Assembly: GCA_965230955.1 (NCBI GenBank)
Contig: OZ246404.1
Location: 161,184-225,183, forward strand
Length of the DNA stretch: 64,000 bases
Source of the DNA: an uncultured Candidatus Saccharibacteria bacterium
GTDB taxonomy: Bacteria > Patescibacteriota > CALEFQ01
Reading direction: 5' to 3'
Shown: piece by piece, positions 19,021 to 44,886 of the stretch
Position numbering within the stretch: position 1 is the stretch's first letter
Layout of the letters: the number at the start of each line of letters is the position of its first letter
Translations under genes and position numbers: made by a program
Notes under the pieces: model-generated
Database searches by the model: none
What the model was told of the DNA's origin: nothing
What the model saw: the letters and a program-made list of their open reading frames with translations, nothing else

Positions 19021-19086
19021 AGGAGAATTGTTTTAAAGTATTGTGTACTGCCGCTATTTTTGAAAATTTGCGTAGAGGGTGAGATT

Positions 19087-19126
19087 CGCCCGGTCATTCG
19101 GCCGGGCGCCGGGTCGAATGACCCGG
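19087..19126 (-). repeat. 40-nt GC-rich hairpin element (copy 1). It is inserted at the TTCG^AATC position of a partial tRNA-Ser(TGA) 3'-end copy.
   Basis: CCGGGTCATTCGACCCGGCGCCCGGCCGAATGACCGGGCG on the minus strand. It is preceded by TGGTTCG and followed by AATCTCACCCTCTACGC, a copy of the tRNA 3' end. Confidence 0.7.
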
Positions 19127-19133
19127 CGAACCA

Positions 19134-19223
19134 TGGCGGAGAGGGTGAGATTCGAACTCACGAGGCCCCGAAGGACCTGCCGGTTTTCAAGACCGGTGCC
19201 TTAGACCACTCAGCCACCTCTCC
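19134..19223 (-). tRNA. tRNA-Ser(TGA)
   Basis: Acceptor GGAGAGG/CCTCTCC, anticodon stem CCGGT/ACCGG with loop CTTGAAA, a long variable arm, T-arm GTGAG-TTCGAAT-CTCAC, and a 3' GCCA. Confidence 0.9.
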
Positions 19224-19378
19224 GGGAAAATTCAAAAATAAAAGCTAAAAATCTAAAAGAGTACTAAAATCTAAAAATTAAATACTTTAATATTTAGATT
19301 TTAAATTTTTTTTTAAACTTTTAAGCTTTAATTTTTAAAGCTTCGCCTATGGCGGGTCATGGCGGAGAGTAGAGGATT

Positions 19379-19418
19379 CGCCCGGCCATGCGTCCGGGCG
19401 CCGGGTCGAATGACCCGG
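19379..19418 (-). repeat. 40-nt GC-rich hairpin element (copy 2). It follows a partial duplicate of the tRNA-Ser(GCT) 3' end.
   Basis: CCGGGTCATTCGACCCGGCGCCCGGACGCATGGCCGGGCG on the minus strand. It is flanked by GATTATTTTGGTTCG and AATCCTCTACTCTCCGCCAT. Confidence 0.7.
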
Positions 19419-19433
19419 CGAACCAAAATAATC

Positions 19434-19526
19434 TGGCGGAGAGTAGAGGATTCGAACCTCTGCGGGGCTTTTGAGGTCCCCAACGGTTTAGCAAACCGTC
19501 GCCTTAAGCCACTCGGCCAACTCTCC
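19434..19526 (-). tRNA. tRNA-Ser(GCT)
   Basis: Acceptor GGAGAGT/ACTCTCC, anticodon stem ACGGT/ACCGT with loop TTGCTAA, a long variable arm, T-arm AGAGG-TTCGAAT-CCTCT, and a 3' GCCA. Confidence 0.9.
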
Positions 19527-19533
19527 ATGTCGA

Positions 19534-19800
19534 TTATGCATTTAAATTGAGTTCCTTCAAAATGTCTCGAATTTGCTGTCTAAGTAATCGTCTTCCTTCG
19601 GTGGTTTTTAGGAACATCTCTCGACGAGAAGCATCGCTTTTCTTTAGATAGGATTCCTCGTGAATTAGTTTGACAGGACGATGGTTTTTGGTTGAGGAAA
19701 CTTGTCCGTGCTGGTGCTCGGCAATTCTTCTTCGCAGATCATTGGTACTGCCTTTATAAAGACTATGATTACTTAATAAAAGAACATAGACGTGGAACAT
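19534..19800 (-). CDS. GIY-YIG nuclease family protein (88 aa)
   Basis: AAGGAGGG RBS. N-terminal VYVLLLSNHSLYKGSTNDLRRRIAEHQHG matches the GIY...YIG motif spacing of small standalone GIY-YIG proteins. Confidence 0.75.
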   Translation of the reverse strand: MFHVYVLLLSNHSLYKGSTNDLRRRIAEHQHGQVSSTKNHRPVKLIHEESYLKKSDASRREMFLKTTEGRRLLRQQIRDILKELNLNA

Positions 19801-19828
19801 GACGATCCCTCCTTGTTTTTAGTGGATT

Positions 19829-19868
19829 CGCCCGGTTATTCGACCGGGCGCCGGATCGGATGATCCGG
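19829..19868 (-). repeat. 40-nt GC-rich hairpin element (copy 3). It interrupts the T-loop of a tRNA-Ser(GCT) pseudogene.
   Basis: CCGGATCATCCGATCCGGCGCCCGGTCGAATAACCGGGCG sits directly after GGTTCG of the tRNA fragment and before AATCCAC. Confidence 0.7.
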
Positions 19869-19942
19869 CGAACCTCTGCGGGGCTTTTGATGTCCCCAAT
19901 GGTTTAGCAAACCGTCGCCTTAAGCCACTCGGCCAACTCTCC
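19869..19942 (-). pseudogene. tRNA-Ser(GCT) 5' fragment (about 95% identical to positions 1 to about 67 of the intact gene). It is truncated in the T-loop by the hairpin element.
   Basis: GGAGAGTTGGCCGAGTGGCTTAAGGCGACGGTTTGCTAAACCATTGGGGACATCAAAAGCCCCGCAGAGGTTCG, with no 3' acceptor strand. A further decayed 5' fragment carrying an internal insertion lies at about 20030..20096. Confidence 0.7.
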
Positions 19943-20160
19943 GTAGGAAATATAGTTTCGAAATGTGCTCAGTAAGATTTGTGCGAATGTTGTTGAGCCA
20001 TCCACCGCTACGTTTCGCGTCTGGCGGGAAGCCACTCGGCCTGCCCTCCCGTAGCCCGAGACATCGAGGGCGAAGGAGGGCCAACTCTCCGTGATTAGTC
20101 TTTGGTCGTTAGTCCTTGGCCTTCTGCCAACAGAAGAACAACAAGATTGTAACTATTTGT

Positions 20161-20297
20161 AAGTCAAAAGTCAAAGGTCAAAAGTCGAAAATATCCTAGC
20201 CCGGCTTTCTACCGGCTGATCACGCCCCACCGAAAGCGAGACTTCTTTATAGCCTTGATCGAGTAAAGCTGTCTTCTGACCTTTGACTTTTGACTTA
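20161..20297. repeat. Period-7/8 repeat hairpin, GTCAAAAG family. Its arms are separated by about 80 nt.
   Basis: AAGTCAAAAGTCAAAGGTCAAAAGTCG ... CTTCTGACCTTTGACTTTTGACTT. A GTCTTTGG-type unit sits just upstream (20098..20125). Confidence 0.7.
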
Positions 20298-20974: not shown

Positions 20975-21011
20975 AAAAATAAGTCAAAAGTCAAAGGTCA
21001 AAAGTCAAAAG
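20975..21011. repeat. GTCAAAAG-family direct-repeat arm. Nested GC hairpins follow it and likely form the clpC terminator.
   Basis: AAGTCAAAAGTCAAAGGTCAAAAGTCAAAAG, then GCCCCGCTTCGCGGGGC and CCGCCGTATCGGCGG. Confidence 0.6.
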
Positions 21012-36101: not shown

Positions 36102-36887
36102 ATGATCTCGCTTTGGTCAGTTATCGTTTTTTTTCTCGGCCTCTGTGTGGGCAGTTTTTTAAATGCGCTGATTTTTCGGCTACATTCCGGCGAATCGGTG
36201 GCTAAGGGGCGCTCGAAGTGCCCCAAATGCCAACACCAACTCAGTGACTGGGATTTAATTCCGGTCATTAGCTTTATCGCCCTGCGCGGAAAGTGCCGTT
36301 ATTGCCACGCCCCGATTTCTTGGCAGTACCCGACAGTGGAATTGGTGACGGCGATTTTATTTGTCCTGGTCTATCTGTATCTGATACCTTCGACGCAAGT
36401 TGGGACGATGACCGGGATTTTTTATTTGGCCTTTCTTTGGTTTATCGTCAGTGTGTCGATTATCGTTTTTGTCTACGACCTGAAGCATTACTTGATTCTC
36501 GACAAAGTCATTTATCCCGCTCTGGCGGTGACTTTTATCGCCGTTTTATTTTTGCCGCAATTTGATTTTTGGCGCGCGCTGATCGGGAGCGGGGTGGTTG
36601 GCGGGTTTTTCCTAATTTTGGTATTATTATCAAAAGAGACTTGGATGGGTTGGGGGGATGTGAAGCTGGGATTTTTGCTGGGCTTGGTGGTCGGCTGGCC
36701 GCTCTGTCTGCCTCTGTTCTTGATCGCTTTCGTCGGCGGCTCGGCCGTCGCGCTTCTCCTGATGGGTCTGAAACTAAAAGGCTGGAAAGACTCGGTGCCG
36801 TTCGGCACGATGCTCACTGCGGCAGCGGTGATAACACTATTTGTGGGGCAAAAATTGATTGATTGGTACTTTGGACTATTGGTATAA
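36102..36887 (+). CDS. pilD: Prepilin peptidase PilD (A24 family)
   Basis: Tetracysteine CPKC...CRYC, a DUF1232-like N-domain, and A24 peptidase TM helices. Confidence 0.9.
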   Translation: MISLWSVIVFFLGLCVGSFLNALIFRLHSGESVAKGRSKCPKCQHQLSDWDLIPVISFIALRGKCRYCHAPISWQYPTVELVTAILFVLVYLYLIPSTQVGTMTGIFYLAFLWFIVSVSIIVFVYDLKHYLILDKVIYPALAVTFIAVLFLPQFDFWRALIGSGVVGGFFLILVLLSKETWMGWGDVKLGFLLGLVVGWPLCLPLFLIAFVGGSAVALLLMGLKLKGWKDSVPFGTMLTAAAVITLFVGQKLIDWYFGLLV

Positions 36888-36889
36888 GT

Positions 36890-36960
36890 TAAAAGTCAAA
36901 AATCAAAAGTCAAAAGTTTCTTGTTGCTACTTTTGACCTTTGACCTTTGACTTTTGACTT
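36890..36960. repeat. GTCAAAAG-family period-7 inverted-repeat hairpin between pilD and the minor pilins
   Basis: AAGTCAAAAATCAAAAGTCAAAAG tttcttgttgctac TTTTGACCTTTGACCTTTGACTTTTGACTT. Confidence 0.75.
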
Positions 36961-44814: not shown

Positions 44815-44816
44815 TA

Positions 44817-44886
44817 AGTCAAAAATCAAAAGTCAAAAGTTAAGGACGATTCACTTTTGACTTTTGACTTTTAACTTTTGACTTTT
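44817..44886. repeat. GTCAAAAG-family period-7 inverted-repeat hairpin
   Basis: AAGTCAAAAATCAAAAGTCAAAAG ... CTTTTGACTTTTGACTTTTAACTTTTGACTTTT. Confidence 0.75.

Follow-up and report, generated by a model that had tools for sequence, protein, structure and literature searches.

What accounts for the broken tRNA pieces, GC-rich hairpins and small nuclease gene that surround two intact serine tRNA genes in this patescibacterial chromosome? In the window (the whole 64-kb stretch of DNA analysed here), we find an arrangement that, judged from its sequence, is probably a selfish element in which a nuclease and hairpins target tRNA loops and a rescue copy of the tRNA is built in. Its parts are a small, Ssn-related, single-domain GIY-YIG nuclease and a 40-nt tandem hairpin pair as the putative cognate site. 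The same design appears beside many tRNA genes of uncultured bacteria, and it appears not to have been described earlier.

Two serine tRNA loci in the window and their empty relatives

Two intact minus-strand genes, tRNA-Ser(TGA) and tRNA-Ser(GCT), are recognised by both ARAGORN and Rfam, in agreement with an earlier note on this DNA, and the parts around them are given in Table 1. Read along the minus strand, the GCT locus runs from an old tRNA 5' part through hairpins, the GIY-YIG gene, the intact tRNA-Ser(GCT), GGTTCG and further hairpins to the old 3' end, and the TGA locus from the intact tRNA through T, GGTTCG and a module to AATCTCACCCTCT. The earlier description of TGGTTCG as following each intact tRNA immediately holds at the TGA locus; at the GCT locus the 9-nt filler GATTATTTT comes first and then GGTTCG. 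A further module copy had been placed inside the T-loop of a truncated tRNA-Ser(GCT), next to a GIY-YIG gene, and both its junction and a Pfam match bear this out. A ribosome-binding site (AAGGAGGG) stands after the AATCCAC remnant, ahead of the GIY-YIG reading frame.

Table 1 Features of the two tRNA-Ser loci, in minus-strand order.
Feature	Position	Strand	Basis or remark
Promoter-like TTGACT-17-TACAAT	20174..20146		Upstream of the oldest 5' fragment
Oldest decayed tRNA-Ser 5' fragment: GGAGAGTTGGCC, 37-nt insert, GGCCGAGTGGCTT	20030..20096	-	Direct sequence reading
Old tRNA-Ser(GCT) 5' part, tRNA positions 1-74, T-loop end ...GAGGTTCG	19869..19943	-	72/74 identity to intact gene
Left double-hairpin module: H+ CCGGATCATCCGATCCGG, CG, H- CCCGGTCGAATAACCGGG, CG	19829..19868	.	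Pattern search, covariance model
AATCCAC, short T-loop 3'-side remnant kept after left module	19822..19828	-	Direct reading
88-aa single-domain GIY-YIG nuclease gene	19534..19800	-	Pfam PF01541, E = 1e-10
Intact tRNA-Ser(GCT), working copy	19434..19526	-	ARAGORN; Rfam 59.8 bits
9-nt filler GATTATTTT and GGTTCG, T-loop 5'-side remnant ahead of right module	19419..19433	-	
Right double-hairpin module, GCT locus	19379..19418	.	Pattern search, covariance model
Displaced original tRNA-Ser(GCT) 3' end AATCCTCTACTCTCCGCCA	19360..19378	-	ARAGORN on joined halves; L093 flank
Intact tRNA-Ser(TGA)	19134..19223	-	ARAGORN, Rfam
T and GGTTCG, remnant after tRNA-Ser(TGA)	19127..19133	-	
Double-hairpin module of TGA locus, without nuclease gene	19087..19126	.	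37/40 identity to right GCT module
AATCTCACCCTCT, truncated duplicate of tRNA-Ser(TGA) 3' end	19074..19086	-	

When the old 5' part (19943..19869) is joined to the displaced 3' end (19378..19360), with everything between the outer junctions removed, ARAGORN calls a valid tRNA-Ser(GCT), and the flank beyond the displaced 3' end aligns with the flank downstream of the corresponding tRNA in a syntenic relative, L093. One of the two differences between the old 5' part and the intact gene disrupts an anticodon-stem pair. The oldest 5' fragment (20096..20030), with its 37-nt insert between duplicated GGCC just as first described, occupies the ancestral gene position; the 60 nt upstream of it align with the sequence that precedes the intact tRNA-Ser(GCT) in L093 (score 28 versus 23 for the best of 500 shuffles). 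The tRNA-Ser(GCT) gene was hit at least twice, and what was a 93-nt gene now takes up 738 nt. A series of events is supported, in line with the suggestion of serial scars: two 5' fragments of different age, the oldest one and a younger one, were left behind together with the displaced 3' end. At tRNA-Ser(TGA) there is a 47-nt copy without nuclease (TGGTTCG plus hairpins) beside a locus-specific duplicate of that gene's own 3' end. The two loci have TGGTTCG and the module (37/40) in common and differ in their flanking duplicates, and the TGGTTCG of the TGA locus does not derive from the tRNA beside it, whose T-arm reads AGTTCG, but is the same string as at the GCT locus; this speaks for movement within the genome. 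The proposal of a miniature copy mobilised in trans fits this nuclease-less copy.

The relatives L092 and L093 share the gene order ClpC, ComF, tRNA-Ser, tRNA-Ser, with both tRNA genes intact and with neither hairpin module, GIY-YIG gene nor tRNA fragments. The tRNA-Ser(TGA) site is clean in both, and in L093 no 3'-end duplicate follows tRNA-Ser(TGA); the window's intact tRNA-Ser(GCT) is identical to the L093 tRNA at 93 of 93 positions. The comparison had been put forward as a check for a conserved tRNA trailer, and because the syntenic relative has both tRNA-Ser genes without the module, the module is an insertion and not a native trailer. The presence/absence polymorphism associated with homing endonuclease genes is found here, L093 being empty at both tRNA-Ser genes, and the target is disrupted in the occupied allele, where the old copy is split at TTCG/AATC. 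After its tRNA-Ser(GCT), L093 carries TGGTTCG and an unrelated hairpin, and that site may not be truly naive.

The double-hairpin module and its nuclease

The conserved 40-nt GC-rich module noticed earlier is confirmed, with three copies that are 33-37/40 identical in pairwise comparison and none elsewhere in the 64 kb. A 25-nt pattern search gave three matches against none expected by chance, and a covariance model run over the whole window returned the three copies only, at 56-63 bits, with the next best hit at 11.9 bits. On the minus strand all three are bounded by GGTTCG on one side and AATC on the other, that is, they sit at the T-loop sequence TTCG/AATC. The module had been read as one hairpin; covariation shows instead two 7-bp hairpins in tandem. 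Among 52 variants the two-hairpin model leaves 99% of cells paired with strong stem covariation, and changes on both sides of a stem fill 128 cells versus 33 in shuffles, with none of 500 shuffles reaching the observed value. A single long 40-nt hairpin was rejected for lack of covariation (83.8% of cells paired versus 82.1% in shuffles). A generic terminator or genome-wide repeat was likewise rejected, as the 64 kb contain only three copies and the hairpins are not followed by a T-run. As for known RNA families, Rfam returned tRNA hits only, besides a sub-threshold sX4 hit that corresponds to the tRNA-Ser part of that model.

The conserved hairpin tops are GTCATNCGAC and its reverse complement GTCGNATGAC, and the stems covary freely. 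On both strands the junction between tRNA and module lies 4 nt before GTCAT. Beside the modules, remnants of 5-9 nt are kept on one side and 3-7 nt on the other, and most of 36 scored loci have a 3-7-nt counterpart of the AATCCAC remnant. The insertion point falls directly after a CG step (rarely CA or TG) in DNA that codes for a tRNA loop, mostly the T-loop TTCG/AA. At non-CG sites the final dinucleotide of the module equals the target dinucleotide in five of six inspected modules (L047, L052, L062, L065, L068 and L072; the TTCA site of L043, whose module ends in CG, was excluded). Modules of one locus are near-identical to each other, those of different loci differ, and the distance from the left module to the nuclease start codon downstream of it is 7-60 nt in most loci.

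Sequence (Pfam PF01541, E = 1e-10) and fold both place the 88-aa protein in the GIY-YIG superfamily, with conserved Y5, Y15, G17, R25, H29, E61 and E68. Its AlphaFold2 model is a single compact domain (pLDDT 93), for which the best Foldseek matches in the PDB are UPF0213, Slx1 and the I-TevI catalytic domain; the protein has no extra DNA-binding domain, as in the single-domain Ssn proteins of ~90-100 aa. Over 66 aa it shares 38% identity with a protein that has NTS hairpin repeats on both sides, which is the Ssn arrangement. With the family profile, proteins in NTS-containing contigs, several of them NTS-flanked, score 26.6-50.5 bits and UPF0213 structures 39-42 bits, so that the protein is about equally close to UPF0213 and to Ssn-type proteins. 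An hhalign comparison with the NTS-flanked set gave 97.7% probability, limited to the core; the C-terminal motifs differ. Searches of NCBIfam, PHROGs and PADLOC with the protein gave no matching family, a search of viral contigs gave no relative, and a plasmid search gave five weak UPF0213-like matches, all in Firmicutes, which are uninformative.

The closest known relatives are the Ssn single-strand nucleases (cd10448) with their flanking hairpin repeats, of which SsnA of Neisseria meningitidis, with NTS/SRM repeats, is the described example (Chenal et al. 2025, PMC11893778). In that work a hairpin starting with GTCAT is bound by Ssn proteins as single-stranded DNA; cleavage falls 3 nt ahead of the NTS, or 4 nt ahead of GTCAT, and 6 nt must precede the cut. 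tRNA is nowhere mentioned in the paper (PMC11893778). Both systems have a ~90-aa single-domain GIY-YIG protein whose gene is flanked by hairpin-forming repeats with a conserved GTCAT, the catalytic core here is 37-38% identical to that of proteins flanked by exact NTS repeats, and the element boundary would coincide with the SsnA cut position relative to GTCAT. In contrast to Ssn, two short hairpins form a symmetric cis element outside the published SRM pattern, the C-terminal helix motif is FLKTTEGRRLL instead of KKWxRxWKLxLIE, and the few copies lie within DNA that codes for tRNA loops, where a tRNA duplicate compensates for them. The published Ssn-related motif pattern had no match within 500 nt of 83 homologous nuclease genes, while the canonical NTS was matched as a control; hairpin repeats with a GTCAT core do lie beside these genes, but with an architecture unlike the published motif. 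Because that motif is absent and the protein is about as near to UPF0213, the Ssn cleavage geometry is applied here by analogy.

The kinship with Ssn raises the alternative of a domesticated system, in which nuclease and hairpin repeats would tune recombination or transformation at tRNA genes and no parasite would be involved. Homology to NTS-flanked Ssn-type proteins, the role of the Neisseria system in transformation (PMC11893778), the competence genes of Patescibacteria and the ComF gene adjoining the locus would all suit it. We nonetheless consider it improbable, since interrupted tRNA genes and decaying fragments speak of damage, not regulation, three copies in 64 kb compare with hundreds per Neisseria genome, the whole system is absent from the syntenic relative, and the adjacency of ComF is ancestral synteny.

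Recurrence at tRNA loops in other genomes

Among 83 non-redundant homologous nuclease genes, 73 have a tRNA gene on the same strand within 130 nt (58 downstream, 15 upstream), and most of the remaining 10 are cut off where the contig ends or the sequence is masked. When the tRNA follows the nuclease, a 5' fragment ending at a module lies upstream; when it precedes the nuclease, a 3' fragment preceded by a module lies downstream. Modules were present within ~150 nt of nearly all of the 82 homologous genes searched, and the tRNAs involved represent twelve amino acids, with insertions also in the anticodon loops of Arg(TCG), Arg(CCG) and Ser(CGA). The anticodon was identical in the broken and the intact copy in all 26 of 26 cases. 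In one type of locus the stretch of tRNA between the cut and the gene end is duplicated, and the order is 5' part, hairpins, nuclease and tRNA; tRNA, nuclease, hairpins and 3' end; or tRNA, hairpins and 3' end without nuclease. In another type a whole, sometimes foreign, tRNA stands between two hairpin modules. The duplication usually stops 0-4 nt from the tRNA end (exceptions, +19 nt in L057 and +24 nt in L019). Only one tRNA half is kept at most loci, and single extra hairpins are scattered through old fragments. At two loci, L004 and L063, the joined old halves give a valid tRNA with the same anticodon, and in L004 the intact copy is markedly divergent from them, acceptor stem included.

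As an independent seed, a metagenome scan with the hairpins alone yielded 87 modules. A strict T-loop junction was found for 65, which upholds the tie between module and tRNA loop, and most others were near misses or lay in anticodon loops. A called tRNA lies within 450 nt of 65 of the 87 modules, a nuclease gene within 200 nt of 18 (the other 69 are without one), and about eight lie outside tRNA contexts. At L169, five tandem 70-nt units follow a tRNA-Asp. Three modules away from tRNA genes (L102, L115 and L137) have flanking direct repeats, but the DNA there is repetitive.

These patterns bear on the reading of the loci as scars of classical integrase elements, with attL/attR sites, a duplicated tRNA 3' end and a bulk later deleted. 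Some integrative elements target tRNA 3' ends and bring a replacement 3' end in attP, and the resemblance is real: an element-borne copy restores the tRNA, a duplicated tRNA segment stands at the far junction, and the duplicated 17-19-nt 3' ends in the window look like att sites. This analogy, drawn in the earlier note, did not hold up. No integrase was found among the window neighbours scanned or recurring in the gene tables examined among ~80 homologous loci, where the GIY-YIG nuclease is the only constant gene; duplicated 5' parts outnumber 3' parts by 58 to 15; and the units, of 47-500 nt, have the same hairpin module at every breakpoint. Integrase scars are highly improbable.

An RNA-level role is the least credible of the alternatives and has next to no probability: a tRNA intron, a split tRNA joined via complementary hairpins, a 3' trailer, a processing signal or a terminator. 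The old halves make a tRNA once the 490-nt insert is removed, and pairing in trans is conceivable for identical palindromic modules. Against this, an intact tRNA with the same anticodon is always there, the old 5' part carries the stem-breaking change, most loci keep one half alone, Rfam has no intron or ribozyme match, the hairpins lack a following T-run, the syntenic relative is without the feature, and RNA is not a substrate of Ssn enzymes (PMC11893778). Group I introns that interrupt tRNA genes are known from the same phylum, self-splicing and located in functional genes (PMC13011429, which makes no mention of GIY-YIG, T-loop or hairpins), whereas here no ribozyme was found and the tRNA copies that are interrupted have become dead fragments, with an intact gene next to them. 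Introns of the group I or bulge-helix-bulge type were rejected as candidates, with partial fragments beside an intact gene and no Rfam intron. The idea of a T-loop-targeting hairpin element with a GIY-YIG nuclease remains the best fit; its IStron-like label does not, as Rfam gives no ribozyme or intron.

Another explanation is a conventional free-standing homing endonuclease cassette of the SegB type. SegB is a GIY-YIG homing endonuclease in a tRNA gene cluster of phage T4 that drives inheritance of its tRNA region (PMC2330249). In such a cassette a double-strand break in a naive tRNA allele would be followed by homologous repair that copies in nuclease and tRNA, the tRNA halves would be the homology arms, for which they are suited across species, and the hairpins would be merely a target-destroying device or an operator, not mobile ends. 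The foreign intact tRNA between two old halves in L004 and L063 resembles allele replacement, and the position of the left module ahead of the start codon at most loci also speaks for a cassette. We regard this explanation as unlikely. The 69 modules without a nearby nuclease nevertheless occupy tRNA loops and are flanked by the same kind of short remnants, modules occur in tandem arrays (L169) and at the window's second tRNA with a locus-specific duplicate, and old fragments are strewn with single extra hairpins; solo spread is not expected of a passive cassette part. SegB also cleaves double-stranded DNA with the help of a DNA-binding part, lacks hairpin modules and interrupted tRNA copies, and belongs to a phage, while the 88-aa protein is without a DNA-binding domain of the homing-endonuclease type and lies in a bacterial chromosome.

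Proposed movement and its meaning

For the tRNA-loop-targeting element that we favour, we propose that the nuclease would bind the hairpins extruded in single-stranded DNA and, by analogy with Ssn, nick 4 nt 5' of GTCAT on each strand, which would be the two tRNA/module junctions. It may also nick the look-alike TCGAA loop of naive tRNA genes, after which the unit would be copied in through host repair or recombination; because GIY-YIG enzymes only hydrolyse, the joining must be the work of the host. Reduced forms could then arise by recombination between the resulting direct repeats, and transcription of the element would probably start at the tRNA promoter that it has captured. The interrupted tRNA is never the sole copy: a complete tRNA with the same anticodon adjoins the element, so that inserting into an essential gene does no harm. 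Two-module loci with a foreign tRNA, such as L004, need a route separate from that of the single-module forms, by recombination with a donor. Counting against the proposal, the intact tRNA copies usually retain TTCGAA, the presumed target, the usual end of the duplication close to the tRNA end does not follow firmly from any of its steps, and about eight of the 87 metagenomic modules are away from tRNA genes.

IS200/IS605 and REP/RAYT elements, with their PATE derivatives, depend on HUH tyrosine transposases and covalent intermediates. They resemble the present units in hairpin ends read as single-stranded DNA, a short specific target adjoining the insertion, many gene-less miniature copies and a gene between its own hairpins; here, by contrast, a GIY-YIG nuclease that acts by hydrolysis takes the place of the transposase, and insertion is into a tRNA loop, with duplication of part of the tRNA. 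Membership in these groups was rejected, there being no HUH (Y1) transposase and GIY-YIG being the unit's only gene. A literature search for GIY-YIG/hairpin insertions in tRNA loops found no description, which does not by itself prove that none exists.

A bolder reading, which we put forward tentatively and hold to be doubtful, is that these units may form an unrecognised class of mobile DNA without transposase or integrase, in which single-strand nicks made by a hydrolytic GIY-YIG nuclease at the element's own double hairpin and at look-alike tRNA loops let host replication or repair paste in the unit between the nicks, the long duplication to the tRNA end saves the gene, and spread between distant bacteria replaces resident tRNAs with foreign ones. 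Such movement between distant bacteria would be possible because tRNA loops are nearly universal.

If the favoured explanation is true, it would account for pieces of tRNA genes and unusual 3' trailers in uncultured bacteria with small genomes (Patescibacteria, as well as Kiritimatiellae, Lentisphaerae, Planctomycetota and Verrucomicrobiota) and would call for caution among annotators of such genomes. Covarying hairpin/nuclease pairs, with free stems and fixed tops, could widen the proposed toolbox of Ssn single-strand DNA cutters. The Ssn family, described in 2025, would gain a selfish life cycle aimed at tRNA genes, a way of safely invading an essential single-copy gene that suggests a route for horizontal tRNA gene replacement.

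Layout of the tRNA-Ser loci and an uninterrupted relative

The earlier note had described tRNA-Ser loci with a repeated hairpin, tRNA fragments and a GIY-YIG gene, and this was borne out by ARAGORN, Rfam, Pfam, and pattern and covariance searches. Two intact tRNA-Ser genes (the GCT and TGA loci, named by anticodon) are accompanied by three copies of a 40-nt module located at tRNA-loop junctions, between TTCG and AATC. The statement that TGGTTCG and the hairpin immediately follow each intact tRNA holds at the TGA locus and fails at the GCT locus, where a 9-nt filler precedes GGTTCG. An Rfam match to sX4, a Xanthomonas sRNA model containing a tRNA-Ser-like part, covers tRNA-Ser(TGA) and its module (19081-19238); this identity was rejected, as the tRNA part carries the match and the score of 39 bits is below the 70-bit threshold.

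Features of the tRNA-Ser loci, in minus-strand reading order, and heptamer arrays (window positions)
Feature	Position	Strand	Basis
Decayed tRNA-Ser 5' fragment with 37-nt insert	20096..20030	minus	read from sequence
Spacer, 86 nt	between decayed fragment and old tRNA-Ser(GCT) 5' part	minus	
Old tRNA-Ser(GCT) positions 1-74, 3' edge GAGGTTCG	19943..19869	minus	
Left 40-nt GC-rich module, GCT locus	19868..19829	minus	
AATCCAC, then AAGGAGGG	between left module and ORF	minus	
ORF, 88 codons, GIY-YIG domain protein	19800..19534	minus	Pfam E = 1e-10
Intact tRNA-Ser(GCT)	19526..19434	minus	ARAGORN + Rfam
GATTATTTT (filler) + GGTTCG	between intact tRNA-Ser(GCT) and second module	minus	
Second module, GCT locus	19418..19379	minus	
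Displaced tRNA-Ser(GCT) 3' end AATCCTCTACTCTCCGCCA	19378..19360	minus	
AT-rich spacer	between AATCCTCTACTCTCCGCCA and tRNA-Ser(TGA)	minus	
Intact tRNA-Ser(TGA)	19223..19134	minus	ARAGORN + Rfam
T + GGTTCG	between intact tRNA-Ser(TGA) and third module	minus	
Third module, TGA locus	19126..19087	minus	
AATCTCACCCTCT after third module	19086..19074	minus	
Heptamer arrays	20161-20187 / 20277-20296; 20981-21007; 36886-36960; 44816-44884		

Joining the old tRNA-Ser(GCT) 5' part to the displaced 3' end gave a tRNA-Ser(GCT) accepted by ARAGORN, and the fragment with the module left in place gave no ARAGORN tRNA call. A relative (L092/L093) shares the order ClpC, ComF (58% identity), tRNA-Ser(GCT), AT-rich spacer and tRNA-Ser(TGA), with both tRNA-Ser genes intact and with no module (no covariance-model match), GIY-YIG gene or tRNA fragments in this region, which constitutes an insertion polymorphism; its tRNA-Ser(GCT) is identical to the window's intact copy (93/93). 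The L093 upstream flank, with a promoter-like -10 box, aligns from 20097 onward, upstream of the oldest fragment (score 28, against a maximum of 23 in 500 shuffles), and the downstream flank aligns with window sequence past the displaced 3' end. Thus, 738 nt now occupy the place of a 93-nt gene, which was hit more than once. On these comparisons, the module region is an insertion into a tRNA gene. The younger of the old tRNA-Ser(GCT) copies carries two changes, one of which disrupts an anticodon-stem pair.

The tRNA-Ser(TGA) site of L093 is clean; TGGTTCG, an unrelated hairpin (ggcaagctcaccataacttgcc) and gacgttcaaacc lie 3' of its tRNA-Ser(GCT) (1438-1480), and TGGTTCG with this hairpin is possibly an eroded older scar. 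At L097 6181-6360, in a more distant syntenic relative, a tRNA-Ser(TGA) 5' fragment stops at CTTG in the anticodon loop; next come two GC-only hairpins of another sequence family, AAAAAC and an intact tRNA-Ser(TGA), with no GIY-YIG gene there. The arrangement is the same scar design with different hairpins.

A second repeat family in the window, unrelated to the module, consists of heptamers, (A)AAGTCA(A/G), in short arrays forming inverted pairs (14 matches versus 0 expected). One inverted pair, with 25-nt arms that are 96% complementary and 88 nt apart, lies between the oldest tRNA fragment and the ComF stop, and one array overlaps a promoter-like site upstream of the tRNA locus.

Structure of the module

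Pairwise identity among the window's three modules is 33-37/40, and the module pattern had 3 matches versus 0 expected. With filters off, a covariance model scored them at 56-63 bits and found no fourth module in the 64 kb, where the next match scored 11.9 bits. The module consensus reads CG, nnnn GTCATNCGAC nnnn, CG, nnnn GTCGNATGAC nnnn, CG. Because the two hairpin tops are reverse complements of each other, each DNA strand shows the same 5' hairpin with GTCAT. The tops contain the T-loop sequence itself (TTCGA / TCGAAT).

For covariation, we aligned 52 distinct modules from many genomes, chosen solely by the two conserved 10-nt tops, which leaves the outer stems free of pre-selection. The two-hairpin structure was 99% paired, with changes on both sides in 10 of 14 pairs and 128 compensatory cells versus 33 in shuffles (0/500 as high), and slid controls collapsed. 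The single long hairpin assumed earlier paired and covaried no better than shuffles in the same alignment and was rejected. This covariation indicates that the two-hairpin form is maintained by selection. Old (interrupted) fragments at homologous loci contain scattered extra single hairpins of module type. At one such locus (L078 2890-2955 and 3414-3479), a nested 22-nt palindrome in the second hairpin's loop, between GTC and CGAATGAC, is one hairpin inserted into another.

Recurrence with and without the nuclease gene

Close homologues of the window's GIY-YIG protein were found only in metagenome-derived genomes. Scanning one genome per species gave 80 loci, the majority in Patescibacteria and others in Kiritimatiellae, Lentisphaerae, Planctomycetota and Verrucomicrobiota; together with loci from an exact look-up, the non-redundant set comprised 83 genes. 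A same-strand tRNA gene lies within 130 nt of 73 of these (58 downstream, 15 upstream), and the majority of the remaining 10 are interrupted by a contig end or masked stretch directly after the gene. The adjacent tRNAs are Ser (37), Arg (15), then Lys, Asn, Gln, Gly, Thr, Val, Glu, Cys, Tyr and Ile. When the tRNA is downstream of the nuclease gene, the gene is preceded by a 5' fragment of that tRNA, which terminates at a module; when the tRNA is upstream, the gene is followed by a 3' fragment with a module before it. The covariance model found ~95 modules at homologous loci, nearly all within ~150 nt of the gene.

Beyond T-loops, insertion points include the anticodon loops of Arg(TCG), Arg(CCG) and Ser(CGA) and another site in Lys(TTT). 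The cut is always 3' of CG, or of CA or TG, and the module's terminal dinucleotide usually copies a CA/TG target dinucleotide. Remnants of the loop's 3' side after the left module measure 3-7 nt in most loci, and a remnant of 5-9 nt (mode 7, GGTTCG plus or minus) is kept before the right module. Duplication of the tRNA segment usually ends 0-4 nt from the tRNA end, with exceptions at L019 (+24) and L057 (+19, past the tRNA end). All 26 old fragments spanning the anticodon match the anticodon of the intact copy, and many old fragments show no difference from the intact gene (100% identity); others are strongly diverged. A valid tRNA with the matching anticodon results from joining the old halves at L004, and likewise at L063; in L004, the intact copy next to them is clearly a different gene.

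L057 (1850-2400) has a tRNA-Tyr 5' part, a module, a GIY-YIG gene and then a T-arm/3' end copy alone, with no complete tRNA called at the locus. L081 (1-640) has a tandem pair of GIY-YIG genes, each followed by GGGTTCG, a module and a differing tRNA 3' end, which suggests successive replacements of one tRNA gene. Several homologous ORFs (L015, L021, L023 and others) lack a stop before the tRNA, and the tRNA 5' end then encodes C-terminal tails such as GEVA and GSPGHATGRPV.

Searching metagenomes by the two hairpin tops, using no gene, we found at least 80 loci with at least 87 modules. Among the 87 modules listed, 65 had the strict T-loop sequence spanning the junction on either strand, most others were one-base near misses or in anticodon loops, and ~8 were in non-tRNA DNA. 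A called tRNA lay within 450 nt of 65 of the 87, and a GIY-YIG homologue within 200 nt of only 18, an excess of nuclease-less copies. The commonest form among the modules listed was that of the TGA locus (tRNA, short filler, GGTTCG, module, tRNA 3' end), with a 3' end identical to that of the adjacent tRNA or clearly another version. These results answer the refutation test set in the earlier note: the module is not a general terminator, and it is not a conserved trailer either.

At L169 (1380-1730), five tandem 70-nt units (tatatcGGTTCG, module, AGTCCGGTCGTCCCCGC) lie directly 3' of tRNA-Asp and could have arisen from repeated insertion or unequal crossing-over. Modules outside tRNA genes at L102 2363, L115 353 and L137 129 are flanked by 6-10-nt direct repeats (e.g. 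GGAAAATCGG on both sides), in DNA that is itself repetitive.

Comparison with Ssn nucleases and a possible mechanism

The AlphaFold2 model of the window's protein is a confident GIY-YIG fold (pLDDT 93), best matched among solved structures by UPF0213 proteins, Slx1, which is a structure-specific nuclease, and the I-TevI catalytic domain. The family numbers 14,192 representatives at E <= 0.001, 2,189 at <= 1e-10 and 23 at <= 1e-30. The nearest published concept is the Ssn family of single-strand DNA GIY-YIG nucleases (PMC11893778), 94-aa single-domain enzymes with genes between hairpin repeats (NTS, CGTCATTCCCGCG...GCGGGAATC); their binding to the hairpin is limited to single-stranded DNA, and their cut falls a few nt upstream. 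The oligonucleotide lengths given there place the cut 3 nt 5' of the NTS, or 4 nt 5' of GTCAT, with a requirement for 6 nt ahead of the cut. tRNA is not mentioned in the Ssn paper, and a 2026 paper on Patescibacteria tRNA introns (PMC13011429) is silent on these features.

Two NTS-bearing contigs (L275, L300) have small GIY-YIG genes between inverted NTS copies, which is the Ssn arrangement. The window's protein shares 38% identity over 66 aa with one NTS-flanked protein, and the profiles match at 97.7% probability in the catalytic core; the C-terminal motifs differ, and the published Ssn-related motif pattern has no match in the modules. Given this combination, we treat the tRNA/hairpin/nuclease system as working like the Ssn/hairpin pair, with no claim to Ssn clade membership.

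We propose, with more doubt than confidence, a specific nick-and-paste mechanism. On the top strand the tRNA/module junction is 4 nt 5' of GTCAT, with a mirrored position on the bottom strand, and an Ssn-type enzyme would nick there; the nicks on the two strands would be staggered by the common CG, which would fit the copied terminal dinucleotide, and the 3-9-nt remnants would fit the need for ~6 nt 5' of the cut. Given the resemblance of the hairpin tops (TCG-AAT) to the T-loop (GGTTCGAATCC) and to those anticodon loops that are used, a naive tRNA gene would be a plausible substrate when exposed in single-stranded form. The unit between a module nick and a nick in the adjacent intact tRNA's loop would be the exact content of single-module forms: hairpins, nuclease and tRNA from position 1 to the cut; tRNA from cut to end, nuclease and hairpins; or tRNA from cut to end, filler and hairpins. 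TGGTTCG and the module are common to the TGA and GCT loci (37/40 identity), the 3'-end duplicate flanking the TGA locus is local, and the local T-arm reads AGTTCG, which suggests that a 47-nt unit moved within the genome and that its target gave rise to the duplicate. Two-module forms with a foreign tRNA suggest between-genome spread by recombination in which the tRNA halves serve as arms; reduced forms would come from recombination between direct repeats, and host enzymes would have to do the joining. A duplication ending at the tRNA boundary could result from cutting at the base of an extruded cloverleaf or from selection for viable events.

The finding is real and non-trivial, and it probably represents a nuclease/hairpin-repeat system specialised on tRNA loops that carries its own rescue of the target gene.
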